Positions 1 to 24,000 of a DNA stretch of 24,000 nt are shown here, piece by piece. The stretch is from assembly GCA_016217675.1 (NCBI GenBank), contig JACRHC010000072.1, positions 1,742 through 25,741 of the forward strand, read 5' to 3'. Both the position numbers and the translations under genes were made by a program. The notes below the pieces were generated by a model that was not told where the DNA came from, did not search any database, and saw nothing but the letters and a program-made list of their open reading frames with translations. Positions within the stretch are counted from its first letter, which is position 1. The number at the start of each line of letters is the position of its first letter. This DNA is from Nitrospirota bacterium (GTDB lineage Bacteria; Nitrospirota; Thermodesulfovibrionia; Thermodesulfovibrionales; UBA6898).

Positions 1-1357
1 TTCCCATGGAATTGAGCTTGCGGCGGAGGGTGCTGTAATCGATTCCAAGTATTCTGGCAGCCTTGCTCTTATTGCCGCCCACGGACTTTAAGACATCCGC
101 AATATGAAGCCGTTCAAGATCAAAAAGTGTAAGATTTTTGGGATATGCTGCAGCGCTCTCCGGCAGTGCTTCGCTTTCAGTTTTGATCTCATCAGGCAGG
201 TACTCCGTGCTGATGAAATCATCATCAGTCATCGTAATAGCCCTTTCAATAACATTCTCAAGCTCTCTCACATTTCCTTCCCATTTATATCGTTTTAGTA
301 GCTCTTCAGCATCTTTGTTTATGCCTGAGATATTCCTCTCCATTTTGGAAGAGAATTTCCTGATAAAATGTCTGATGAGAAGCGGGATGTCTTCTTTTCT
401 TTCCCTCAAGGGCGGGATCTCGATGGGGATGACATTCAACCGGTAATAAAGGTCTTTTCTGAAGGCTCCCCTGTCCACAGCATCTTTAAGATATTCATTC
501 GTAGCTGCAATAACCCTGACTTCAACACCTATAGTCTCTTTACCCCCGAGTCGCATAAAGGTTCTCTCCTGCAAAAACCTGAGCAGCTTTACCTGCATCA
601 TCGGGCTTATGCTGCTGACCTCATCGAGAAATACCGTACCTCCGTCAGCTGCCTCAAACAGGCCTGTCTTTCTGTTTACTGCACCAGTGAATGCACCCTT
701 TTCGTAACCGAACAACTCGGACTCCAGAAGATCATCAGGCAGTGCGCCACAATTGATGGCTATGAAGGGCCTCTGTGCCCTTTTGCTGCCATAATGGATT
801 GCTCGTGCAACAAGCTCCTTGCCTGCACCGCTTTCTCCTATGATCAGGACCGTTCCGTCCGTGTCCTTGACCTTTTCGATCATGCTGAATACCTGGCGCA
901 TAGCAAGGCTTGAGCCTATGATCTCGCCTGAGCCCGGCAATCCTTCCAGCTGTCTCTTCAGGCCTATGTTTTCGAGCTTCAGACTTCGTGTTTCAGCAGC
1001 CCGCCTGACAACAATCGCTATATGCTCGGGGTCAAAGGGCTTCGGAATAAAATCATACGCACCTGATCGTATGGCTTTGACAGCAGATTCGACAGATGAA
1101 TAGGCCGTGATCACGATTACGAATATATTTCTGTCAACCTTGTGCGCCTCCTCGATCACCCGGAAGCCGTCAATGTCCGGCAGCATGAGGTCGGTTATTA
1201 CAATATCGACAGGCTCACCGCTGCCAAGTCTTTCTATTGCAGCAGAAGCATTACTGAAGGTCTCAACAACGCAGCTCTCCGGTTCAAGAGACCTCCTGAT
1301 TATCTTCAGCATGGTCTCTTCGTCATCTATGGCTACTACATTAAGCGGCCTATCCAT
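1..1357 (-). CDS. sigma-54-dependent response regulator (NtrC/AtoC type: receiver + AAA+ + Fis-type HTH); C-terminal end runs off the left edge
   Basis: Absent from the ORF track because there is no stop inside the window. My reverse-complement translation from ATG 1357..1355 gives MDRPLNVVAIDDEETMLKII...ITDLMLPDIDGF (receiver). It continues with GESGAGKE (Walker A), YEKGAFTGA (GAFTGA sigma-54 contact loop) and ...GGNKSKAARILGIDYSTLRRKLNSMG (HTH), reaching base 2. The ATG overlaps the stop of the upstream kinase by 8 nt. Confidence 0.9.
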   Translation of the reverse strand, partial: MDRPLNVVAIDDEETMLKIIRRSLEPESCVVETFSNASAAIERLGSGEPVDIVITDLMLPDIDGFRVIEEAHKVDRNIFVIVITAYSSVESAVKAIRSGAYDFIPKPFDPEHIAIVVRRAAETRSLKLENIGLKRQLEGLPGSGEIIGSSLAMRQVFSMIEKVKDTDGTVLIIGESGAGKELVARAIHYGSKRAQRPFIAINCGALPDDLLESELFGYEKGAFTGAVNRKTGLFEAADGGTVFLDEVSSISPMMQVKLLRFLQERTFMRLGGKETIGVEVRVIAATNEYLKDAVDRGAFRKDLYYRLNVIPIEIPPLRERKEDIPLLIRHFIRKFSSKMERNISGINKDAEELLKRYKWEGNVRELENVIERAITMTDDDFISTEYLPDEIKTESEALPESAAAYPKNLTLFDLERLHIADVLKSVGGNKSKAARILGIDYSTLRRKLNSMG

Positions 1358-3080
1358 TTTCTTCTCCCATGGGAAGCCTGATCCTGAAGGTGCTTCCCTG
1401 TTCTTTTCCGCTCTCTGCAAAGATCTCGCCTCCGTGGTTCTGAACTATGCCGTAACTTATTGCAAGTCCAAGGCCAGTGCCTTCACCCACTGCCTTTGTC
1501 GTAAAGAAAGGATAGAATATTTTGTCTTTGATCTCATCGGCAATTCCGATGCCGTTATCCGATATCGATATCTCGGCCATATTGTCGCTTGAGACGGAGG
1601 TCCTGATTATTATGTTTCCTGACGATTCGATGGACTGAATCGCATTAAATAGGATATTGCTCAGAACCTGGCTCAACTGGAGGGGATCAACACGGATATC
1701 CTGAAGTCCTGGATCAATCTCCCTGATGATCTCGATTTGTTTTGAGTTGGCCTGATTCATTACAGTTTTAATTGCACCGTCAATAAGAAAGGTCAGCGAT
1801 GTCATCTCTTTCTTCGGGGGGGACTGCCGGGAATATACAAGTAGATCCTTGATTATGTTTGCGCACCTGCCTGAATCCTTGATGATTGATTCAAGGTCCT
1901 CCCGCGCAGCAGTGTCTTCGGTATTTTTCAGTCTGAGCTTGGCAATGCCGATCACATTGCCTATGGGGTTATTAATCTCATGTGCAATGCCTGCGGCAAA
2001 CTTGCCTATGGCTGCAAGACGTTCTGACTGGTAAAGGCGCTCCTCCATGCTCCTCATTTTTTCGAGGTTCGCAGCCATTCTGTTAAACCCCTCTGAAAGC
2101 TCTCCGATCTCATCCTTTGATACAACCACGATCCTGTGGCCGAACTCGCCCTTCCCGATTCTTTCAGCCCCTTCTCTGAGCTTCACCACTGGCCGCAGCA
2201 CTCTGTTGAGGACAAGAAACAGAACAAAGACCGAACCGGCGGATATAGTCAGAATAAAAATCAGAAGAGTCAGATGCGTTTTCGCAATTATCCCCGGCAG
2301 TCTGTCTTCCTGAATGATCATAACGTTTCCGATTGCTGCATTGGTCATATCAGTGAGCGGGAACTTTATAAGCAGCCTGCCGGACAGGTCTTTCTCTGAA
2401 AGAGTCTTGCGATCCGTTTTCCCCTGAGCCTGCAGTGTAGAAGATATGACACTGCCTGTGGAATCGACAATAACAAGATCGGTGTTGCTCAACTGTTTTA
2501 TCTTGGCCAGCAGGGTGTCATCAAGCAGTATACCGGCAGTGATCGTGCCTATAAGTTGATTCTCATTGTAAAGGATCGGCGCAGATGCCTTAATAATGAA
2601 CCCCTGCTTCGCAAGCACAATGCCGGACATCACCTTGCCCTGAAGGACACTTTTTATGAGGGGGTCCTGTGATCTGTCGTCGCTATATCGCTCAGGCGCT
2701 TCGGCAACAGCAACGACGCGGCCCCGAATATCGCCGATCTCTATAGTGCTGACATCAAACGACTTGAACAAACGGGTTATAGCTCTCAACGGGTGTTCGC
2801 GTTCACCGGAAAGCTCGGTGTGATAAAAGAGGCTGTCCTTTATCTCTCTGTCATTGCTGAAAAGCTTTGTGTAATTTGTGACCTTGCTTTGGTAGTCGTC
2901 AAAGAGTTTTGTTACGAGATTCTTCACGCTCTCCAGATTGGTCTGCTGCTGTTTGAGAAGGGCGTCTCTGACAACATAAGAAACGACGGGAAGAATTGTG
3001 ACTGTGACGAGCAGGATGGTAACAACAATGATCGAGATGATCTTATATCTGATCGAAAGTCTATTCCATAGATTCTTCAT
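1350..3080 (-). CDS. membrane sensor histidine kinase (large extracytoplasmic sensor domain, HAMP, HisKA, HATPase)
   Basis: 576-aa ORF. It has an N-terminal TM helix (IISIIVVTILLVTVTILPVV), a ~240-aa extracytoplasmic segment and a second TM helix (LTLLIFILTISAGSVFVLFLVL). The H-box is AAGIAHEINNPIGNV. ATP-binding boxes are LFNAIQS, DNGIGI and GTGLGL. Confidence 0.9.
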   Translation of the reverse strand: MKNLWNRLSIRYKIISIIVVTILLVTVTILPVVSYVVRDALLKQQQTNLESVKNLVTKLFDDYQSKVTNYTKLFSNDREIKDSLFYHTELSGEREHPLRAITRLFKSFDVSTIEIGDIRGRVVAVAEAPERYSDDRSQDPLIKSVLQGKVMSGIVLAKQGFIIKASAPILYNENQLIGTITAGILLDDTLLAKIKQLSNTDLVIVDSTGSVISSTLQAQGKTDRKTLSEKDLSGRLLIKFPLTDMTNAAIGNVMIIQEDRLPGIIAKTHLTLLIFILTISAGSVFVLFLVLNRVLRPVVKLREGAERIGKGEFGHRIVVVSKDEIGELSEGFNRMAANLEKMRSMEERLYQSERLAAIGKFAAGIAHEINNPIGNVIGIAKLRLKNTEDTAAREDLESIIKDSGRCANIIKDLLVYSRQSPPKKEMTSLTFLIDGAIKTVMNQANSKQIEIIREIDPGLQDIRVDPLQLSQVLSNILFNAIQSIESSGNIIIRTSVSSDNMAEISISDNGIGIADEIKDKIFYPFFTTKAVGEGTGLGLAISYGIVQNHGGEIFAESGKEQGSTFRIRLPMGEENG

Positions 3081-3088
3081 TCAATCCT

Positions 3089-3892
3089 TTATTTCGCCTT
3101 GGCAAAATTACGTCTGATGATGGCCTGCCCCTCTTCGCCCAGGACAAAATCCATAAATTTCTTTGTGAGCCCATCCGGCTGGCCCTTCGTTATGATATAA
3201 AGGTCGCCTTTCAGGGGATATAAGCCTTTCTCGGTATTTTCAGGAGTGGCAGCGATCTTGTCCACGCTCACTATCTTCACCTTTGCCTCTTGTGCGAAGA
3301 CCCTTGGAGCGATACCTATTGCACCAGGAAACTTTTCCACATATTCGACAACCTCTTTATCTGTTTTTACGACAATCGCTTTTTTCGCAACAGGTCCATT
3401 TATACCAAGGACCTTACGTACCGGCTCCTCCATATCCCTGCAGTGATCCCTGAAGACCAGGGCAATCGGCTTGTCCTGTCCTCCGACCTGCTTCCAGTTG
3501 GTGATCTTACCATTATGAATATCTGATACCTGCTTCAGGGTAAGGTTGCCCAGAGGATTCTTTGAGTGCAGCATGACCGCCTTGATATCAACTGCAACCT
3601 TATGCTGAACCAGATTAAGTTTCCTGGCCTTCTCAGGCGCCAGAGGGCAGCAAAGACCGCCCATCTCATGCTCGCCTTTCACGACAACAGCAATCCCGTC
3701 TGCACACCCGCCGCCTTTCACGAAGACCTTCAAGCCATACTTTTTCTCAAATGCTCTTGCCAGGTCTTCAAGTGCACCGTGGGTGAGGATATGAGTACCC
3801 TGATAGCCTATGTCTGACGATGGGGATGAAATGCCGGCTGAAGGAAAGATGCTGACTATGCAAGCCAGTGTCAATATTAATAAGAGTCTCAT
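3089..3892 (-). CDS. periplasmic PstS-fold (PBP_like_2-type) binding protein with Cys-substituted ligand pocket; probable co-sensor of the adjacent kinase
   Basis: Track ORF 3089..3928. The second Met (ATG 3892..3890) gives a clean signal peptide MRLLLILTLACIVSIFPSAG; 3928 is an alternative start. The block LTLKQVSDIHNGKITNWKQVGGQDKPI is the hallmark I associate with PstS-like binding proteins. No ABC permease or ATPase genes are adjacent; the kinase starts 9 nt downstream. Confidence 0.75.
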   Translation of the reverse strand: MRLLLILTLACIVSIFPSAGISSPSSDIGYQGTHILTHGALEDLARAFEKKYGLKVFVKGGGCADGIAVVVKGEHEMGGLCCPLAPEKARKLNLVQHKVAVDIKAVMLHSKNPLGNLTLKQVSDIHNGKITNWKQVGGQDKPIALVFRDHCRDMEEPVRKVLGINGPVAKKAIVVKTDKEVVEYVEKFPGAIGIAPRVFAQEAKVKIVSVDKIAATPENTEKGLYPLKGDLYIITKGQPDGLTKKFMDFVLGEEGQAIIRRNFAKAK

Positions 3893-4011
3893 TGTTTGTA
3901 TTATAAAAACTGCCGGCAATATTTGCATGTAATCTTTTCATAGCAAGATGAAAAGTGCTTCACTAAACCGGCTTTCCTATCAGCGCTCTGGCTATCGTGT
4001 ATTCATGCAGC

Positions 4012-4068: not shown

Positions 4069-4160
4069 TCACGGCCGACTGATCACATTATGTGCGCTAT
4101 TTTCGTTCTAACTGAAATTCGCATCGGCAAATCGATACGACAAACATTGCTTTAACTATC

Positions 4161-5591
4161 TCAAACTCCCTCCTTGCCTTTATTTCCACCAGTCAACACA
4201 CTCTGTCGTCCCTTCTGGTAAGCCCCTTCCTGCAGCACACCCTTGCTGAAATCTTTTATGTGGCCGTCTACCCACCGAACGTCCTTAAAGCCGTTGTCCA
4301 TGAGTTGCCTGTACACCATCAGCGCCCGGTTGCCGGCCTCGCACTGCAAGACTATTTTCTTGTCTCTGGGCAGTTCAATCCAGCGTCTGTTCATTGTTTC
4401 GATAGGGATCGTCAATGCCCCAGGTACCATGCTCTTCATGTATTCAACAGGACTTCTGACATCCACAATGATGGTATTCTCAGGCTTATTGGCGATCAAT
4501 TTCTCATATTCATCGATATACATGGCGCCGGGCAGTGGAGTCTTCTTGTAGGCAATTTTAGTCTGCAGCTTATTGTTCTCCAGAGGGTATCCTTTTGCCT
4601 TCCATGTATCTATGCCGCCGTTCAGAATATATCCGTCTTCCCATCCGTTAATGCGCATTATTTTATGCGCCTGAAGAGCCTCCTCAGGGTTGTCTGAATA
4701 GTAGATTATTCTCGCCTTCTTGTCTGAGGGCAGGGCCTTATTCAGTTCCTTCATTGCTGTTAGCGGATCTTTGCCCAGTGGATAATTGACCGCGCCTCTG
4801 ATATGCGCTTGACGCGCCTTCTCAGGACTTCTCAGATCAACCAAAATATGGGATATGCCCTCGTCAAGCGCCATCTTCAGGAATTCAGGTTCCGTGTAGT
4901 AGGGGTTTATGTCTGCCTGCCATATCATATGACCTGAAACCATGTACTTTACGTTTTTGTAGCCGTACACTTCCTTTGCCAACCTGGCAAAGTGGGGGCT
5001 CATGCCTCAAGAGGCTCCCCGGCAGTAGGCCACTATCAGGGTATTTTTGTCCGCAGGCATGCGGTCCTTGAATGCCTGGAACTGGTAGTGGGGCATCAGT
5101 ACAGCGCCGGGCAGATGTCCTTCAATAAAGTTGTCATATCCCCGGGAATCGAAGATGACATAGTTCGCAACCTTGGGGTCTTTCTTCAGAAGCTCGACCA
5201 CTTCGCTGACGGAGATGACATCGTCAGGATTTTTGAAACCGTAGTTTGACTTGTAACTTAATTCCTCGGCGTAAACCTGACCGTTGTCTTCAGTCCTGAA
5301 CCTGACCTTGACCGCTTTTTCATCAGGCAGATCCTTGACTGTTGCAACCTTGTTCAGCTTCGAATTCTTGTCATAGCGCACAGACCAGATGTCTTTTCCA
5401 GCCTGAACCTGAAATGAATCGTTTTTTTGAGAGCCCGGGACAAGAGTCCCCCTGATGGTCTGACTTTCATTCTTGTGGCACTCGGCACAAATAGCGCTGA
5501 TGCGCTCCTTGCCGTTGTCAGCTGATGCGGTCCCGGCAGCAATTAGCATTACTGCTGTCAGCAGACTTGTGAATAATCTTTTTCTTTTCAT
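4161..5591 (-). CDS. secreted CxxCH-domain / triple-rhodanese sulfurtransferase with in-frame TGA (5009..5007) read as candidate selenocysteine, 476 codons
   Basis: Track ORFs 5007..5675 and 4161..5003 are in the same frame, separated only by TGA plus one Gly codon. The start is taken at ATG 5591..5589 (MKRKRLFTSLLTAVMLIAAGTASA signal peptide), 7 nt after AAAGGAGA. A CAECH motif follows. Rhodanese domain 1 straddles the TGA: ...LIVAYCRGAS-TGA-GMSPHFARLAKEVYGYKNVKYMVSGHMIW. Domain 2 lacks Cys (YYSDNPEEA). Domain 3 has the loop CEAGNRA. Confidence 0.65.
4961..5000 (-). promoter_or_regulatory. SECIS-like stem-loop immediately 3' of the in-frame TGA
   Basis: mRNA: UGA GGC AUG AGC CCC CAC UUU GCC AGG UUG GCA AAG GAA GUG UAC GGC U. 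The upper stem CUUUGCC/GGCAAAG is 7 perfect bp (plus-strand 4974..4992). The apical loop AGGUU begins at nt 25, counting the U of UGA as 1. A lower stem AGCC/GGCU lies across an internal loop. Confidence 0.5.
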
Positions 5592-5614: not shown

Positions 5615-5851
5615 TTATTTCTTCTCTGTATACCAGACCTGGTCTTCTGCAGGCAGTGAAAGCAGGGTTGCCCATTCGAGCCAGGAGCCGTCATAGACCT
5701 TGTTAGCCTTTTCAGGGACTTCAACGATGCGGATACTCTTGTTGTCGAGGTTTTTCTTGAGCCAGTCTGCGTCCACAAGAGATATTGCCCAGCCTGCAGA
5801 AGCCCAGAGTAAGACGACGAGACAGCTGATCCAGAATGTTTTTTGTTTCAT
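5615..5851 (-). CDS. small secreted protein made of only the first and last segments of a rhodanese domain (no active-site loop)
   Basis: 78-aa ORF with signal peptide MKQKTFWISCLVVLLWASAGWA. It continues LVDADWLKKNLDNKSIRIVEV (typical rhodanese N-terminal strand) joined directly to KVYDGSWLEW (typical rhodanese C-terminal motif). SD AAGGAGG lies 5 nt before the ATG. Confidence 0.55.
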   Translation of the reverse strand: MKQKTFWISCLVVLLWASAGWAISLVDADWLKKNLDNKSIRIVEVPEKANKVYDGSWLEWATLLSLPAEDQVWYTEKK

Positions 5852-5877: not shown

Positions 5878-5894
5878 TTCAAGAGTCGTGCCAG
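5878..5894 (-). promoter_or_regulatory. sigma-54-type promoter candidate for the rhodanese operon
   Basis: Minus strand: tcaCTGGCACGactcTTGAAataactcctcccaaAAGGAGGcgcatATG. The -24 box is a perfect CTGGCACG. The -12 box is TTGA (consensus TTGC) at the exact N5 spacing. The predicted start leaves a ~15-20 nt leader containing the SD. Confidence 0.5.
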
Positions 5895-5979: not shown

Positions 5980-6011
5980 ACTGCAAAATGCAATGACACT
6001 GCAAAATGCAA
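5980..6011 (-). promoter_or_regulatory. direct-repeat pair, candidate enhancer (UAS) for a sigma-54 activator
   Basis: The 14-nt unit ACTGCAAAATGCAA occurs twice (5980..5993 and 5998..6011, 18-bp period). Each unit contains two TGCAA half-sites 7 bp apart. The pair lies ~90-120 bp upstream of the -24 box and directly after the stop of the activator gene at 6033. Confidence 0.4.
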
Positions 6012-6032: not shown

Positions 6033-7370
6033 CTATTCCAGATCGTACTTCTTCAGTTTTCTCCAGAGTGTGGTGACATCAATGCCCAGAGCCTCAGCTG
6101 CCCTGTTTTTTTGTCCATCAAGAAGCCTCAGGGTTCTCTGGATAAGAAATTTCTCCATTTCATCGATCGTCATAAGCCCTATATGAGAAAGGGGATCATG
6201 AAGCTCCTTTTCCATATCAGGAGGAAGTGAATGGACAGTGATCATTGCTGACTGCTCCATAATCACCGCCCTTTCTACTGCGTTTTCAAGCTCCCTGACA
6301 TTGCCGGGCCACGGGTAGGCATTGAATACCTCTAATACTTCAGTAGCGAATGCCCGGATTTCCTTGGTGAATTTCTTTCCGTATTTATTCAGAAAGTGAT
6401 ACGCAAGCAGCGGGATGTCATCTTTTCGGTCTCTGAGTGACGGGATGGCCAGCACAACCACATTCAGCCGGTAGAAGAGGTCTTTTCTGAACCTGCTGTC
6501 AGCCACTTCTTTCTGAAGATCGGCATTAGAGGCTGCTACTATCCTGACATTTACCGGTATGGGCCTCGCAGCGCCGACCCTCATGATAGTCTGCTCCTGA
6601 AGCACACGCAGGAGCTTTACCTGCATTGCAGGCGACGTTGCATTGATCTCATCGAGAAAGATCGTACCCTTGCTTGCTGTTTCGAAAAGCCCCTTCTTTT
6701 CAGCAACCGCACCGGTAAAGGCGCCCTTTTCGTGGCCGAAAAGTTCTGACTCAAGGAGTGTTTCCGAAAGGGCTCCGCAATTTACAGGCAGAAACAGATT
6801 GCCGGATCTTGAGCTCTGCCTGTGGATCAGCCGTGCGATCAGCTCCTTGCCTGTGCCTGTTTCCCCCTGTATCAGGATGGTCGTGTCAAGTGGTGCGACC
6901 TTGTCGATAAGCTGCCTGACCGACATCATGCCCTGGCTCGAACCGATGATATCATCCTCCTGATAGCTTCTGACCTCTGCTGACAACCTTCTGTTTTCGT
7001 CCAGCAGATCATGGTGCTCAAGAGCCCTCTTTACCAGGAGCAGGAGATGGTCCGGATCAAAGGGCTTCTGAATATAGTCGTACGCCCCCTTTCTGATGGC
7101 CTCTATTGCAGACTCTACTGTGCCATGGGCTGTGACCATGACCACCAGTGCTTCAGGGTTTATATCTTTTGCATAGGCAAGTACTTCGAGGCCGCTTACA
7201 TGGGGCATTTTGAGGTCTGTGATAACAATATCAAAGGCCCTCTCTTTCAGCATCATAAGGGCCTCTCTTCCGTCACCCGTTGAATAGACAGTAAATCCCT
7301 CTGTCCTGAGCAGTTCTTCTATCAGTTGCCGCATTCTCAGGTCGTCGTCAACAACGAGTATCTCAGCCAT
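6033..7370 (-). CDS. sigma-54-dependent response regulator (NtrC/AtoC type)
   Basis: Track ORF 6033..7436. I place the start at ATG 7370..7368 (MAEILVVDDD...), which overlaps the kinase stop by 8 nt exactly as in the other cassette. Motifs: receiver (VITDLKMPHVSG), Walker A GETGTGKE, HEKGAFTGA, and C-terminal HTH GQKNRAAEALGIDVTTLWRKLKKY. Confidence 0.92.
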   Translation of the reverse strand: MAEILVVDDDLRMRQLIEELLRTEGFTVYSTGDGREALMMLKERAFDIVITDLKMPHVSGLEVLAYAKDINPEALVVMVTAHGTVESAIEAIRKGAYDYIQKPFDPDHLLLLVKRALEHHDLLDENRRLSAEVRSYQEDDIIGSSQGMMSVRQLIDKVAPLDTTILIQGETGTGKELIARLIHRQSSRSGNLFLPVNCGALSETLLESELFGHEKGAFTGAVAEKKGLFETASKGTIFLDEINATSPAMQVKLLRVLQEQTIMRVGAARPIPVNVRIVAASNADLQKEVADSRFRKDLFYRLNVVVLAIPSLRDRKDDIPLLAYHFLNKYGKKFTKEIRAFATEVLEVFNAYPWPGNVRELENAVERAVIMEQSAMITVHSLPPDMEKELHDPLSHIGLMTIDEMEKFLIQRTLRLLDGQKNRAAEALGIDVTTLWRKLKKYDLE

Positions 7371-9084
7371 GGTTCTCCTTTTCTGATGGCAGCCTGACAA
7401 TGAATGTTGCTCCTTCCCCAATCCGGCTCTCAACATTAATTGTTCCGTTATGGTCCCTTATGATACCGAGACAGATCGAAAGGCCGAGGCCTGTGCCCTT
7501 GCCGACCGGCTTTGTAGTGTAAAAAGGGTCGAATATTTTACACTGCAACTCTTCTGTGATGCCCGGCCCGGTATCTTTCACCCTGATCTCCACATTTCCG
7601 GATGCAGTCTGCCCGGTTGTGACTCTCACTGCCCCGGAGGTATCTATCGCCTGCATCGCATTTAAAACAAGATTAAAGATGACCTGCTCGATCTGGCGCG
7701 GATCAGCCTGTATATACGGGATATCTGCAAGCTCCTGTTCAATGCCGATCCCGCTCTTTTGAGCCTGAGGGGAAAGGAGCCGGACCACATTTTCAATTAT
7801 GGCATTAAGAGATACTGATTCCCTTATTGAGATAGACTGGCGTGAAAAGTCGAGCAGACCCTGAACGACAGAGCTGCCCTTTCTGGCCTGCTCCGCAATT
7901 ATCTCAAGTTTTTCTCTCTGGACGTTACTGAGGGAGTTGTCTTTCAGCAGAAGTCTTGCATAGCCTAACACGTTGCCGAGCGGGTTGTTTATCTCATGGG
8001 CAAGGCCTGCAGACATCTGTCCGATCGCAGCAAGTTTCTCTGCCTGACAGAGCATACCCTGCTGTTGTTTATCATCAGTAATGTCCCTGAAGGTCTGAAC
8101 TCCGCCCAGGGTGCGGCCGTCGCTGTCCCGGATAATGGCGGAGCTTACTGACACGATCCTGCGTCTGCCGTCCTTTGTGATGATCTCTGTCTCCTTGTTC
8201 CTGATCGTCTTGTCCTCATTATGCAGGGCGCAGGCATCGGCGCATAGCCTTGTTTTAAAAACTTCTTCGCAATGCATTCCGAGGACCTCCTGCTCCTTAT
8301 AGCCTGAGATGTACTCGGCAGAGTTGTTGAAGGAGACGATAAGCCCGTCGCTGTTGCTCACAAAAAGACCGTCAGCCAGACTCTGGACAATGGTCTCAAG
8401 CTTGATCTTCTCTGTCTGTATATCTTTCCGGCCTTTCATAAGGTCATTAAAATTCGCATCAAGGGAGGCAGCCATATCATTAAAGGCCGCAGCCAATTCT
8501 TCGAACTCATTTCCTGCATCAAGAATAATACGGTCCTTCAGATTCCCCTCTTTTATTGTCCTTGTGCCTCCGATAAGCGCGGTAATAGGGCATATGAGCA
8601 GGGAGTTGACAATGGCATTGTTTAGCACAAGACCTATAATATGTACGGCAAGAATAAAGACAACCGCTGATATGATGATATTCCGCGAAAGCGCGTTGAC
8701 CCTTGTCATGGCAAAGGATACTTCAACCTTGCCGAGTCCGGACCCGCCTATCTCGATAGGGTAGCTCACCTTCATGGCATCCGGCCCTTCTTTGCCTTCT
8801 TTTGCCTCCGCCAGTACCTCTCCGTCGTCACGCACGATCCTGAGAGAGACAATATCCTTTTCCTCTGCAACCTGCCGGACATAACGCTCCATGGTGCCAT
8901 AGTCATGAGTGAGCATGGCATCCATCGTTACGGTTGAAAGCACCCGTGCTATTGATTCACCCTTGTCCTTCATATCCTCAAGAAGGACCTCACGTCCTTT
9001 ATATATTATGACCGAGATCAGGACCAGGGCAGATATTGTCAGGATCACGCTCAGCCGTTTATAAAAGTCGCTCTTCAGGCTCAT
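7363..9084 (-). CDS. membrane sensor histidine kinase (short periplasmic domain, HAMP, PAS, HisKA, HATPase)
   Basis: 573-aa ORF. TM helices are LSVILTISALVLISVIIY and IIISAVVFILAVHIIGLVL. A HAMP-like segment (EFEELAAAFNDMAASL) and a PAS-like segment (LADGLFVSNSDGLIVSFNNSAEYISGY) follow. The H-box is SAGLAHEINNPLGNV, with DTGPGI and GTGLGL boxes. Confidence 0.9.
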   Translation of the reverse strand: MSLKSDFYKRLSVILTISALVLISVIIYKGREVLLEDMKDKGESIARVLSTVTMDAMLTHDYGTMERYVRQVAEEKDIVSLRIVRDDGEVLAEAKEGKEGPDAMKVSYPIEIGGSGLGKVEVSFAMTRVNALSRNIIISAVVFILAVHIIGLVLNNAIVNSLLICPITALIGGTRTIKEGNLKDRIILDAGNEFEELAAAFNDMAASLDANFNDLMKGRKDIQTEKIKLETIVQSLADGLFVSNSDGLIVSFNNSAEYISGYKEQEVLGMHCEEVFKTRLCADACALHNEDKTIRNKETEIITKDGRRRIVSVSSAIIRDSDGRTLGGVQTFRDITDDKQQQGMLCQAEKLAAIGQMSAGLAHEINNPLGNVLGYARLLLKDNSLSNVQREKLEIIAEQARKGSSVVQGLLDFSRQSISIRESVSLNAIIENVVRLLSPQAQKSGIGIEQELADIPYIQADPRQIEQVIFNLVLNAMQAIDTSGAVRVTTGQTASGNVEIRVKDTGPGITEELQCKIFDPFYTTKPVGKGTGLGLSICLGIIRDHNGTINVESRIGEGATFIVRLPSEKENHG

Positions 9085-9089
9085 GCTGC

Positions 9090-9917
9090 TTACCTGTCCT
9101 CCACGAAATTGACTATATCACGGGCCTGCCTGAAATCATTGTCAGATACAGTCCCGAAACTCTCAAGCGCAGGATCAACACCTTGAAGCACGCGCCTGTC
9201 TTTAATCCCCATAAGAGCAGTCCTGATCTTTGATTTCAGTCCGGCGGGCAGTTTATTACTGCAGACGATCACGTGAGGCGGGATCGCATAAGGCCCGGCA
9301 ATGACCTTGATAGGTCTGTCTCGGTATTTTTCATAGATATCCTCCCGGACCCCACCTGCGTCGAAGTCTTTGTGCGAAACTGCAAGAACCACCTTCGAAT
9401 GGCTGCCTAAAAAGTCATAGGATTTCAGGTCCTTCAGCTTTACGCCTTCCCTGTTCAGGAGATAGCGGGGATAAAAATGGCTGCCATAGGACTGAAAATC
9501 TCCAAAGGCAAAGGTCTTGCCCCTGAGGTCCTTCAGATTTCTGATGCCGCTGTCTTTGTGCGCTATGATGACAAGCCTGTCGTTTTTATTGTCCCGCATG
9601 ACCAGCCGCGAGATAAGTTCCACACCGCCGTATTTGTCCTTTGCCCTGATATAGGGAGATGGGCCCATGAAACCGAGATCTACCCGTCCCTGGCCGATAT
9701 TAATTATGTGGGACATATAATTTGGCGCAATAACGATCTTTACCGGAATGCCGATCACTTTTGAGAGGTGTTTTAGCAGCGGCTCAAAGCTCTGATATAT
9801 CTGCGTCGGTGTGTCATATGGATATATACCAAAGGAAAGTTGTGCGGGCTCTGCGGCAAGGGCAGAGGTCAGAAACAGTTGCATGACAAAAATTACTGAC
9901 ACAAAAAGCTTATTCAT
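9090..9917 (-). CDS. periplasmic PhnD-like (phosphonate/phosphite-type) substrate-binding protein, orphan (no transporter genes), probable co-sensor
   Basis: 275-aa ORF with signal peptide MNKLFVSVIFVMQLFLTSALA. LSFGIYPYDTP...VDLGFMGPSPYI...GKTFAFGDFQSYGSHFYPRYLL resembles the PhnD family as I remember it. SD AAGGAG is upstream. The kinase starts 6 nt downstream. Confidence 0.7.
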   Translation of the reverse strand: MNKLFVSVIFVMQLFLTSALAAEPAQLSFGIYPYDTPTQIYQSFEPLLKHLSKVIGIPVKIVIAPNYMSHIINIGQGRVDLGFMGPSPYIRAKDKYGGVELISRLVMRDNKNDRLVIIAHKDSGIRNLKDLRGKTFAFGDFQSYGSHFYPRYLLNREGVKLKDLKSYDFLGSHSKVVLAVSHKDFDAGGVREDIYEKYRDRPIKVIAGPYAIPPHVIVCSNKLPAGLKSKIRTALMGIKDRRVLQGVDPALESFGTVSDNDFRQARDIVNFVEDR

Positions 9918-14581: not shown

Positions 14582-14842
14582 TTAACTACATCCGCAACCT
14601 GCTGCAGCCGGAGCGCCGGCATTCGATGGTGCAGTCTTACTGATAGTTGCAGCGAACTGATCCATCTTTCCCGCAGCGCCCTTCCTGACCGCTTTTGCAA
14701 CTTCGATTGCCTCTGCAATTTCAAAGTCGCTGGCACCGCTTTCCAGTGCCTTCTCAACATGGTACTGCAGACACGGTTGGCAGTTTGCGGTTACTGATGC
14801 CCCGATTGCGATCAATTCTGTAATGCGATTATCAAGCTTCAT
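14582..14842 (-). CDS. AhpD-like / carboxymuconolactone decarboxylase (CMD) family protein with CxxC and a C-terminal GCGCS tail
   Basis: 86-aa ORF: ELIAIGASVTANCQPCLQYHVEKALESGASDFEIAEAIEVA matches the CMD/AhpD helix-CxxC-helix pattern. It ends in an Ala/Pro-rich tail, PSNAGAPAAAGCGCS. A strong SD GGAAGGAGGTGAT is present. Confidence 0.75.
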   Translation of the reverse strand: MKLDNRITELIAIGASVTANCQPCLQYHVEKALESGASDFEIAEAIEVAKAVRKGAAGKMDQFAATISKTAPSNAGAPAAAGCGCS

Positions 14843-21930: not shown

Positions 21931-22746
21931 TTAACCATTATTATGTTTACCCGTCCGAAATCCCAATTTCATTGCATGCTCACTGCATACATCCATGCAT
22001 TTCGCGCAATTCGTGCATTCACCTGAGGTGACAAAACTGCTTGCTATCCCCACCATCGGAAGCACCTGCTGCTCAGGGCAGTGTTCGATGCACTGCATAC
22101 AATGCGTACAGTTATCCTTCAGGTGCCGCACCCGGATGAAACTGAACTTTCCTGCAAGCGAATAGAAGGCCCCCAACGGACAGACATGGCCGCAGAATCC
22201 ATACTGCACCAAGAGCAGATCAAAAAGAAATACTGCGACGATGGCTGTCCACCCGGCTCCCATACCAAAAATGAGCCCGCGATGAAGGGTCGAGATCGGG
22301 CTGATCCACTCAAAGGCTGCTATGCCGAGCACGGCTGAAAGCACGAGTGCAAGCCCGGCCGCCCAGTACCTGACATTCCGGTCCATGCGCAACGATATGC
22401 CTGCCTTTGCCGGCAGAACTCTTCTCAGCCTGTTGGCAAGGTCGGTGATCATATTCATCGGACAGACCCAGCTGCAGAATGCCCGGCCGCCGACAACAGC
22501 AAAAAATACAAAGATGAGAGCGCCCCCGATAAGGGCTTCGCGCGACGCAATATTGCCGGTCGCAGTCATCTGAAGCAGGGCAAACGGATCTGTCAGAGGA
22601 ACAACATCGAGAAGCCGGGAAGTGCTGAGATTGCCCCTCAAAACCTTCCATCCGTACAGATTGCCTCCGATGAAAAGGGCAAGGATCGAGATCTGCGAGA
22701 GTCTCCGCAATATCAGATAGCGGTTTCTATACATAAAATCTCGCAT
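21931..22746 (-). CDS. napH: NapH, membrane quinol-dehydrogenase subunit (4 TM + Fe-S)
   Basis: Motifs CSWVCP and CGHVCP lie at membrane-proximal positions. The C-terminal ferredoxin motifs are CTHCMQCIEHCP and CTNCAKCMDVC. Confidence 0.85.
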   Translation of the reverse strand: MRDFMYRNRYLILRRLSQISILALFIGGNLYGWKVLRGNLSTSRLLDVVPLTDPFALLQMTATGNIASREALIGGALIFVFFAVVGGRAFCSWVCPMNMITDLANRLRRVLPAKAGISLRMDRNVRYWAAGLALVLSAVLGIAAFEWISPISTLHRGLIFGMGAGWTAIVAVFLFDLLLVQYGFCGHVCPLGAFYSLAGKFSFIRVRHLKDNCTHCMQCIEHCPEQQVLPMVGIASSFVTSGECTNCAKCMDVCSEHAMKLGFRTGKHNNG

Positions 22747-22747
22747 C

Positions 22748-23560
22748 TCAGAACCCGTCCTTATTCAGATATTCAAGGGCAGACTTCTCACTTCTCGGCG
22801 TCACGGTCTTGGTCTCCTCTGAAACATCCTCGATCCTCTGCTCGTCCTTCTCATCCCAGCCGCGCACATACCGATCGCTCGACTCTCCCAATGCAAGGTG
22901 CAGGGGGAGGACAAATATGGATGCCTTCTTCGTAACGCATGCCCTCTCGCATGCGCCGCAGCCTGTACAATGATCACTATGCACGACCGGAGCAAGAATT
23001 GCATGTTTGCCGGTCCGGTCATTAGCGGTCCTTTCAACGGTGAGCGCCTTGTCTATTACCGGACAGACCCGATAGCAGGCATCACACTGGATACCCCAGT
23101 ATGCAATGCAGGTCTCCCGGTCAATGACCGCCAATCCTATCTTTGCAAGGTTGATATTAAGCTTGTCCCTGCCCCGCTCATCCTTATCTCTCATCAGTGA
23201 ACTGTCAAGAGCCCCGGTGGGGCAGGCAACTGCGCAGGGAATGTCCCGGCACATTTTACAGGGATTTTCGCGCATTATGAAATAGGGTGTACCGACAGGC
23301 CGTTCGTCGCCCGGTTTGGCAATGACAAGTGCCTTATACGGGCAGGCCTCGGCACAGAGGCCGCACTTGGTGCACAGAGCGAGAAACTTCTCCTCCTTCA
23401 CAGCGCCTGGCGGCCTCAGTACCGTAGGATATGCCTTCTTGCCGTCAAGAAATCCTGCCCAGGCCAAGCCGCCCACAGCGGCTGCACCTGCGCCTCTAAA
23501 CAGGTCTGCGAGAAACTGTCTTCTCTCAGGCATCTTCTCTGATCCCTCCGGTGCAGTCAT
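22748..23560 (-). CDS. napG: NapG, Tat-exported poly-ferredoxin subunit
   Basis: Twin-arginine signal PERRQFLADLFRGAGAAAVGGLAWA. There are four Cys clusters: CTKCGLCAEACP, CKMCRDIPCAVACP, CDACYRVCP and CTGCGACERAC. Met at 23533 is an alternative start. Confidence 0.85.
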   Translation of the reverse strand: MTAPEGSEKMPERRQFLADLFRGAGAAAVGGLAWAGFLDGKKAYPTVLRPPGAVKEEKFLALCTKCGLCAEACPYKALVIAKPGDERPVGTPYFIMRENPCKMCRDIPCAVACPTGALDSSLMRDKDERGRDKLNINLAKIGLAVIDRETCIAYWGIQCDACYRVCPVIDKALTVERTANDRTGKHAILAPVVHSDHCTGCGACERACVTKKASIFVLPLHLALGESSDRYVRGWDEKDEQRIEDVSEETKTVTPRSEKSALEYLNKDGF

Positions 23561-23571
23561 CTGCGTTCTTA

Positions 23572-24000
23572 TCAGGCTTTATACACTTTTACAGCGCACT
23601 TCTTGTAGTCAGGCTCCTTCGAGATCGGGCATGTCGCATCAAGTGTCACCTTGTTGATGAATACATGCTCATCAAAGAACGGAACAAAGATAAGACCTTT
23701 AGGGGGCAGATTTCTGCCTCTGGTCTCGACCCTGGCCTTCACCTTGCCTCTTCTGGATTCAATCCATATAAGTTCTCCGTCCTTCACGCCGCCCTTCTGC
23801 GCATCCTGGGGATGCATGAAGCAGAGCGCCTCAGGAACAGCCCGATACAGCTCGGGCACCCGCATGGTCATGGTGCCGGTATGCCAATGCTCAAGTACCC
23901 TGCCAGTGCAGAGCCAGAAGGGATATTCACTGCTCGGATTTTCCGGCGGCTCGATGTAATGGCGCAGAAATATCTTCGCCTTATTCGGGAGCTTCACCTT
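23572..24000 (-). CDS. napA: NapA, periplasmic nitrate reductase catalytic subunit, C-terminal ~142 codons (5' end beyond the right edge)
   Basis: ...[41 protein letters not shown]...[49 protein letters not shown] is the molybdopterin-binding C-terminal domain typical of NapA. The frame stays open to base 24000. Confidence 0.85.

Follow-up and report, generated by a model that had tools for sequence, protein, structure and literature searches.

A gene on the minus strand of a 24,000-nucleotide (nt) stretch of a Nitrospirota bacterium (contig JACRHC010000072.1; the whole stretch is called the window, and all coordinates are window positions) very probably encodes a selenoprotein. Its one in-frame TGA lies in the active-site loop of the first of three rhodanese domains and is predicted to specify selenocysteine (Sec, U in motifs); ahead of these domains, the predicted product carries a signal peptide, a CxxCH haem-attachment motif and an oligonucleotide/oligosaccharide-binding (OB) fold. 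By computation we observed pairing of TGA with Cys among relatives, a reading frame conserved around the TGA, a covarying hairpin resembling a selenocysteine insertion sequence (SECIS), the domain architecture and a conserved gene neighbourhood.

The minus-strand frame from 5591 to 4161 is interrupted only once, by the TGA at 5009..5007. In order, it comprises a start ATG (5591..5589) preceded by AAAGGAGA, the in-frame TGA, a GGC codon, a second ATG (5003..5001) and a terminating TGA (4163..4161), and the joined translation around the break reads ...NTLIVAYCRGAS-TGA-GMSPHFARLAKEVYGYKNVKYMVSGHMIW. A first-pass annotation, made from the letters of the sequence, had described two open reading frames (ORFs) in one frame with TGA-GGC between them, and our joined translation is identical to the one that it quoted. 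An independent gene caller begins the N-terminal piece at the same ATG (locus L021). The Pfam stretches agree with its placing of the break within the active-site loop of rhodanese domain 1, YCRGAS-U-GMSP, where the TGA does lie five residues past the loop Cys (C190 and U195).

Homologues had been expected to carry Cys or TGA at this column, and both were found. In an alignment of 59 rows, of which row 1 is the window protein with Cys written for Sec, the column is Cys in 58. At the DNA level, 20 related loci from species-representative genomes encoding a relative were compared; TGA occupies exactly the same column in 15 of these, and the remaining five have TGC. The TGA-bearing loci come from Thermodesulfovibrionales and other Nitrospirota, and from Desulfurivibrionaceae, Desulforhopalus, Desulfobacterales and Desulfobulbaceae, that is, from two phyla, Nitrospirota and several lineages of Desulfobacterota. 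The frame is kept on both sides of the TGA, tblastn with the joined protein spanning residues from about 1 to 460 in related loci. A UGA aligned with Cys in a frame conserved on either side, as is looked for in a selenoprotein gene, is what this comparison gives.

The protein databases hold the same family in two states. About 25 full-length relatives (452-458 amino acids (aa), 41-52% identical) with the motif YCNGY[GT]C[GS]MSP were found in the joined-protein search, in which 50 of the 113 match clusters were post-TGA halves (261-282 aa, 47-100% identical), all beginning MSPH or MSPY. Every match listed there at more than 53% identity was a fragment, and no read-through form was among the matches listed. 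An exhaustive search with the N-terminal domain returned pre-TGA halves of 193-205 aa that end in YCRGxx or FYCGGxx just short of the column, some of them from far more divergent clades. Neighbour joining on the C-terminal part puts the window protein in a clade of 48 clusters made up of Sec forms only, whereas its sister clade has Sec and Cys forms interleaved, requiring at least two Sec/Cys switches in this sample.

Past the TGA lies the SECIS-like hairpin CUUUGCC / AGGUU / GGCAAAG. Its perfect 7-bp stem and its AGGUU loop, which begins at nt 25 from the U of UGA, were found at 4992..4974 just as first described. A 4-bp lower stem that had also been proposed did not hold up, the outer pairings given by RNAfold and RNAalifold being inconsistent and showing no covariation. 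Shuffles and synonymous recodings confirmed the accompanying caution that a 7-bp stem alone is not statistically rare. The hairpin in one sequence is not significant, and the weight therefore rests on the comparison with relatives. A stem of 5-8 bp with a loop of 3-5 nt, starting at nt 18-20 from the U of UGA, occurs in all 15 distinct TGA sequences; the eight Cys-form sequences have merely 0-4 bp that can pair at the same codon-aligned place, and none has the hairpin. Across the 15-sequence alignment 86.7% of cells are paired, with lower values for every slid register, and double-sided changes were observed in three pairs (nine cells in total), a value reached in none of 500 shuffles.

In two of these sequences (L007 and L008) UUUGCC/GGCAAA has become UUCACC/GGUGAA by two compensatory double changes, U-A to C-G and G-C to A-U. 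These keep the stem although the protein changes, from Ala to Thr and from Ala to Val; the peptide therefore co-varies to preserve the RNA stem. Another four (L009, L012, L018 and L019) pair in a register one base away, giving 8 bp and a 4-nt loop, which is why some cells were counted as unpaired. The apical loop begins at nt 25-26, and in every sequence one of its first two positions is a G. Loop position and a G in the apical loop are the main sequence criteria of the bSECISearch model, and the position of the hairpin and its G/U-containing loop fit the bacterial SECIS model. The TGA orthologues thus share the conserved stem-loop 3' of the UGA that is expected of selenoprotein genes.

The architecture of the joined protein was examined by translation, Pfam and the 59-row alignment, all of which are consistent with the signal peptide, the conserved CxxCH and the order of active, Cys-less and active rhodanese domains put forward earlier. 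C35, C38 and H39 are each present in 57 of the 59 aligned family members, and in being exported with a conserved CxxCH the protein resembles c-type cytochromes; there is no Pfam cytochrome match, and the predicted fold is OB. The c-type haem motif proposed earlier at CAECH stands as a motif, in a region predicted to have this OB-fold and not a cytochrome c fold. No Pfam family covers the N-terminal domain. Its AlphaFold2 model, built on the window's own sequence, has a predicted local distance difference test (pLDDT) score of 91.5 and shows a five-stranded barrel over about 80 residues past the CxxCH, for which Foldseek gave weak OB-fold matches to RPA, a tRNA-synthetase anticodon domain, CcmE, CusF and YgiW (E 1e-3 to 1e-2). 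The barrel part of this domain was also matched 4 to 11 times each in several large proteins (P0235, of 2400 aa, P0240, P0241, P0243 and P0245), which look as if built from repeats of this OB-like module, with the CxxCH arm absent.

The joined protein scores 147.8 bits against PF00581 (cutoff 22.2), in three rhodanese stretches. Alignment to solved rhodaneses places C190 at the canonical catalytic position, in a loop with an insertion of 2-3 residues, and the motif Y-C-x-G-x-x-[C/U]-x-M-S-P is nearly invariant among the 59 rows. Domain 2 is presumably inactive. Domain 3, whose C417 is invariant (59/59 rows), has the look of a standard persulfide carrier. For the Cys homologue P0003, a model (pLDDT 89, predicted template modelling score 0.73) contains three rhodanese domains, and its Foldseek neighbours are the multi-rhodanese proteins 1yt8, EanB and YnjE (E 1e-10 to 1e-14).

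The organism probably decodes Sec. Indirect support comes from a second gene of the window with an in-frame TGA, located at the GxUC position of a listed selenoprotein family. The first-pass annotation had pointed to this TGA, at 17752, for its similar geometry, and we do find a 7-bp hairpin there with a loop that begins at nt 22 after the UGA. The encoded CopZ-like protein matches NCBIfam models under their cutoff (57 vs 100 bits). A CopZ-type selenoprotein is listed as 'form 1, GxUC' in a review that also reports selB/selC in Nitrospirae (PMC13188914), and the Sec type of the multihaem selenoprotein MccSep is reported from Nitrospirota and Desulfurivibrio (PMC13510729).

Four observations weigh against a selenoprotein. 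The hairpin, folded as a single sequence, has a z of -1.17, with 20 of 200 dinucleotide shuffles folding equally well; the same is true for 12% of the synonymous recodings that were made of this peptide. An Rfam scan of 4800..5200 with E up to 10 gave no SECIS family and a chance miRNA match only, and there is no tRNA-Sec in the 24-kb window, which has no tRNA at all. With these taken into account, we hold with high confidence that the gene is a genuine selenoprotein gene with the architecture described.

A different explanation is that the TGA is a true stop separating two genes, one for a haem/OB protein of 194 aa that ends in an incomplete rhodanese domain and the other for a 280-aa protein starting at Met197. 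Gene callers and NCBI (HZA15_10150, 280 aa) annotate the region in this way, and an ATG does follow one codon past the TGA, with GGGGAG about 11 nt upstream of that ATG. However, the break falls inside one rhodanese fold, so that neither half is a complete domain, and it occurs always exactly at the Cys column in lineages that are 41-91% identical. Met197 is kept in 57 of the 59 family members, including unbroken Cys forms, and is therefore not a start-codon signal. Since, in addition, the covarying hairpin accompanies TGA only, we consider two genes at this place very unlikely.

Recoding of the UGA without selenium, by near-cognate insertion of Cys or Trp or by an alternative code, with the hairpin as a generic stimulator of read-through, was also considered. 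Structure-stimulated read-through of stop codons exists in principle, and Sec is assigned here by inference. An alternative code is excluded because TGA, as an ordinary stop, terminates this very gene. Moreover, the TGA always replaces the Cys of a redox-type motif, which is the signature of a Sec/Cys pair, the hairpin has the SECIS-like position and apical loop described above, and a second known selenoprotein family has a TGA in the same window; selenium-free recoding is thus very unlikely. The TGA might also stem from faulty sequencing or assembly, or TGC/TGT might have mutated recently into a pseudogenising stop, in what is really a Cys protein; either is next to inconceivable despite the metagenome-assembled source and the large in-frame deletion in the neighbouring 78-aa ORF of the same unit, because the same TGA recurs in an independent assembly of the window's own sequence (L021) and at 15 other loci from different samples and phyla, the same truncation is found in 50 database clusters, the 48-cluster clade is without any Cys member and conservation past the TGA is intact.

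Table 1. Features of the putative selenoprotein gene, its neighbourhood and the second candidate gene (window positions).
Feature	Position	Strand	Basis or remarks
Selenoprotein gene candidate, complete	4161..5591	minus	476 codons including one UGA predicted as Sec
Predicted selenocysteine codon, residue 195	5007..5009	minus	TGA in 15/20 related loci, TGC in 5
SECIS-like hairpin, 7-bp stem	4974..4992	minus	arms 4992..4986 and 4980..4974, loop AGGUU 4985..4981
Predicted signal peptide, residues 1-24, MKRKRLFTSLLTAVMLIAAGTASA, followed by DN	5520..5591	minus	translation read by eye: basic N-terminus, hydrophobic core, AxA site
CAECH, c-type haem attachment motif, residues 35-39	5475..5489	minus	haem attachment predicted
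N-terminal domain, residues ~26-118, CxxCH arm and five-stranded beta-barrel (OB-fold)	5238..5516	minus	AlphaFold2
Rhodanese domain 1, residues ~124-226, loop Y-C190-R-G-A-S-U195-G-M-S-P	4914..5222	minus	Pfam and alignment
Rhodanese domain 2, residues ~240-340, no Cys, Asp300 at catalytic position	4572..4874	minus	alignment
Rhodanese domain 3, residues ~360-452, canonical loop C417-E-A-G-N-R	4236..4514	minus	Pfam best stretch 360-449
Terminator-like hairpin and T-rich tail	4119..4140	minus	directly past stop codon
78-aa ORF, first in unit	5615..5851	minus	in-frame deletion remnant of 309-aa periplasmic tandem rhodanese
Sigma-54-type promoter-like site TGGCACG-ACTC-TTGA	5879..5893	minus	28 nt upstream of 78-aa ORF
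Two exact copies of TTGCATTTTGCAG (13 nt), 18 bp apart	5981..6011	minus	repeat search
Sigma-54-dependent response regulator	7436..6033	minus	Pfam
HAMP-PAS histidine kinase	9084..7363	minus	Pfam
PhnD-family periplasmic binding protein	9917..9090	minus	Pfam
Second Sec gene candidate, 75 residues, CopZ-N-terminal/BFD-like 2Fe-2S, motif G-R-U-C	17696..17923	minus	TGA 17750..17752

The 78-aa ORF at the head of the unit has lost about 230 codons. Its residues 1-54 are 81% identical to residues 1-54 of the 309-aa protein of L001, and its residues 51-78 are 100% identical to residues 282-309 of that protein; L001 and L025 carry the 309-aa gene undamaged in the corresponding place, and the remnant is also present in the independent assembly L021. 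Upstream, the sigma-54-like site has GA at -12 where the consensus is GC, and since the pattern is not rare by chance, it is a weak lead alone. For TTGCATTTTGCAG we found three matches with at most one mismatch where 0.1 were expected, the third (20412..20424, plus strand) having one mismatch. On this evidence the tandem copies are probably binding sites, that is, an operator, of the adjacent sigma-54 activator. TGCA-N3-TGCA pairs 18 bp apart also occur at no fewer than seven related loci (L001, L002, L006, L012, L017, L022 and L025), with Sec and Cys forms alike, and a comparison of gene coordinates places them between the response regulator gene and the rhodanese operon in L001, L002, L012, L022 and L025.

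In L022/L023, L025 and L026, too, Sec and Cys forms are immediately preceded by the cassette of binding protein, histidine kinase and response regulator. Recurrent neighbours across the loci are a porin, a tandem rhodanese, C_GCAxxG_C_C proteins, and TusA with a YeeE-type transporter, and at some loci ArsR/ACR3 (L022) or ArsP/Trx3 (L013) stand beside the haem-rhodanese cassette. Cys forms of the Geobacter type, with more than 1600 matches, adjoin a cytochrome bc-like cluster. This neighbourhood points to sulfur chemistry and regulated expression. Beyond the terminator, the window has a second sensor module on the minus strand, made up of a PstS-like binding protein (3089..3928) and a dCache-HAMP histidine kinase (1350..3080).

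The CopZ-like gene belongs to a minus-strand run that also contains arsR, ACR3, a thioredoxin gene, a CcdA/DsbD_TM gene and two genes related to mercury methylation. Of the latter, hgcA (16519..17613) encodes the corrinoid protein (NF040863, 392 bits vs cutoff 275) and is followed by an hgcB-like gene for a 2x[4Fe-4S] ferredoxin ending in ...GDCC (about 16226..16534). Also on the minus strand, 18306..20973 and 21034..23997 hold arsR, ACR3 (SBF family) and an ArsP permease with Trx3, adjoining a nap cluster with napD, napB, two NapH/NapG-like Fe-S proteins (read from Fer4-type Pfam matches) and the C-terminal end of a molybdopterin subunit. A CMD (AhpD-like) ORF at 14582..14842 (minus) was considered as a third Sec candidate and rejected; it is a complete Cys form with a CxxC (CQPC) motif and no in-frame TGA. 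Its CMD-domain family has Sec forms elsewhere.

From the features described above we infer Sec insertion in vivo, haem attachment, a Cys-Sec redox cycle, a substrate and a mode of regulation, which can be combined as follows. The UGA at 5009..5007 would be decoded as Sec with the aid of the hairpin 18-36 nt downstream, acting as a bacterial SECIS element, to give an exported protein of 476 residues whose CxxCH arm presumably carries covalent haem c on the OB barrel. Domain 3 would take up sulfane sulfur as a persulfide. In domain 1, C190 and Sec195 may form a redox pair, as is suggested by a spacing equal to that of the UxxxxU motif of the selenoprotein TsoB; a selenenylsulfide would form and be resolved, cleaving S-S or S-Se bonds, while the haem would relay electrons to or from periplasmic cytochromes. 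Polysulfide, thiosulfate, tetrathionate or related chalcogen species are likely substrates. The adjacent binding protein, histidine kinase and sigma-54 activator would switch on expression through the tandem TGCA-N3-TGCA sites.

By analogy, we favour reductive or oxidative processing of sulfane sulfur, induced by a periplasmic ligand, because the combination of periplasm, haem, Cys/Sec and porin/rhodanese loci parallels the MccSep/Ext system. The specific reductive mechanism is put forward tentatively, with somewhat less than even chances. Three points speak against this functional picture: the guess at the substrate rests on neighbours that differ between loci, the CxxCH is predicted to sit on an OB-fold instead of a cytochrome fold, and the N-terminal domain has no conserved distal His or Met in the 59-row alignment.

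A genuine selenoprotein might also have another role, acting on Se, As or Hg species, for example thioarsenate, or in selenide/selenite trafficking or detoxification. The ars neighbours make a role in Se or As chemistry a live alternative: ArsR and ACR3 are directly beside the cassette in L022, ArsP and Trx3 are upstream in L013, and the arsR, ACR3, ArsP and hgcAB genes of the window are 11-15 kb off. The binding protein, too, weakly matches a putative selenate-binding family (66 bits, cutoff 250). Yet ars-type neighbours are not consistently adjacent, other loci have TusA with the YeeE-type transporter, the porin and extra rhodaneses, and the Geobacter-type Cys forms adjoin the cytochrome bc-like cluster; we judge such a role unlikely, though worth keeping in view.

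More speculatively, the c-haem and the Cys190/Sec195 loop may constitute one catalytic centre, with the distal haem ligand supplied by Sec, by its Cys partner or by Met197, or else with the loop placed within electron-transfer distance of the haem. The N-terminal domain has no conserved distal His or Met, and C190, C/U195 and M197 are nearly invariant, which makes this arrangement compatible with the alignment; we regard it as a long shot. If true, the protein would be a self-contained periplasmic haem-selenol reductase or oxidase (for polysulfide, thiosulfate or Se species) on a rhodanese scaffold, a second and independently evolved solution to MccSep chemistry. In that case it might be the first example in nature of a haem, held on a fold other than that of cytochromes, with a selenolate in its coordination or reaction sphere.

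Whatever its substrate, the family is systematically halved in public databases, as the 50 post-TGA fragment clusters among the 113 of one search illustrate. Sec forms of it are spread over Nitrospirota and Desulfobacterota of sediments and groundwater, and a right annotation would add a widespread selenoprotein to sulfur-cycling anaerobes. Having a haem motif and a Cys-x4-Sec loop in one protein with a canonical persulfide-forming rhodanese would link sulfur transfer to periplasmic electron transfer. The parallel to the newly characterised polysulfide reductase MccSep is testable, and the conserved sensor cassette with its predicted binding sites would offer a direct route to the inducing substrate.

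Rhodanese selenoproteins are already listed in the literature, as the first-pass annotation had noted. A review of 2026 distinguishes five forms of rhodanese-like selenoproteins, established as predictions: form 1 with UxxS, forms 2 and 4 with UxxG, form 3 (NF041203) with CxU and form 5 (TsoB, NF045694) with UxxxxU (PMC13188914). Like these, the window protein has its Sec in or next to the PF00581 active-site loop. Its U-G-M-S matches the UxxS of form 1, a likeness at the level of the motif only. The form-1 reference WP_010941598.1, which we take to be a Geobacter sulfurreducens protein, was not among the matches listed in searches from the joined protein, a Geobacter Cys homologue and a Desulfobacula two-domain relative. 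Compared with the UxxG forms, the window protein has its Sec off the canonical catalytic position. The U-x4-U spacing of TsoB equals that of C190-x4-U195, a comparison of spacing and not a residue-by-residue alignment, and TsoB is the best curated relative of domain 1, with 71.7 bits over domain 1 only. This score is far from the TsoB cutoff of 805, and TsoB is a rhodanese/DsbD fusion with two Sec, whereas the window protein has no DsbD_TM domain and one TGA only. For NF041203 (rhodanese_LYCAU) the score is 69.5 against a cutoff of 115, with its best match on domain 3, and the motif is C-x4-U, not C-x-U. No NCBIfam model reaches its cutoff for the window protein, and none covers its architecture. 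The review, in which the word 'heme' does not occur, lists no haem-linked or triple-rhodanese form among the five (PMC13188914), and we found no description in the literature of a selenoprotein with haem motif, OB domain and triple rhodanese, or of a haem-rhodanese fusion.

MccSep (ExtKL) of Geobacter sulfurreducens is a periplasmic multihaem selenoprotein polysulfide reductase (PMC13510729), in which His/Cys-ligated haem and Sec reduce polysulfide (PMC13510729, PMC6148476). A periplasmic location, c-type haem and a Sec near a catalytic Cys acting on S-S bonds are features that it would have in common with the protein proposed here. Its gene, too, was split in two by annotation at the TGA, and in extHIJKL it occurs with genes for a porin-like protein and a rhodanese (PMC6148476), just as some loci of the window family have a porin and an extra rhodanese. 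However, the five haems of MccSep are carried by a multihaem cytochrome fold, and it has no rhodanese domain, whereas the window protein has one CxxCH, an OB-fold and three rhodanese domains; it does not qualify as a member of the MccSep family, no homology between the two was found, and the resemblance is one of analogy only.

The multi-rhodanese fold is shared with YnjE of E. coli, which is a periplasmic three-domain rhodanese, and with 1yt8 and EanB, at an identity of only 14-18%; unlike the window protein, these have no haem motif, OB domain, Sec or second loop chalcogen. CcmE, CusF and YgiW are periplasmic OB-fold proteins that weakly match the N-terminal domain (E 1e-3 to 1e-2, template modelling score about 0.5), and we found no sequence family to which this domain belongs. 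CcmE binds haem covalently on its OB-fold through a His, in contrast to the CxxCH of the window protein. Selenoprotein rhodaneses thus being known already, we rate the form with haem motif, OB domain, triple rhodanese and C-x4-U as adding a variant to them and not a new principle.

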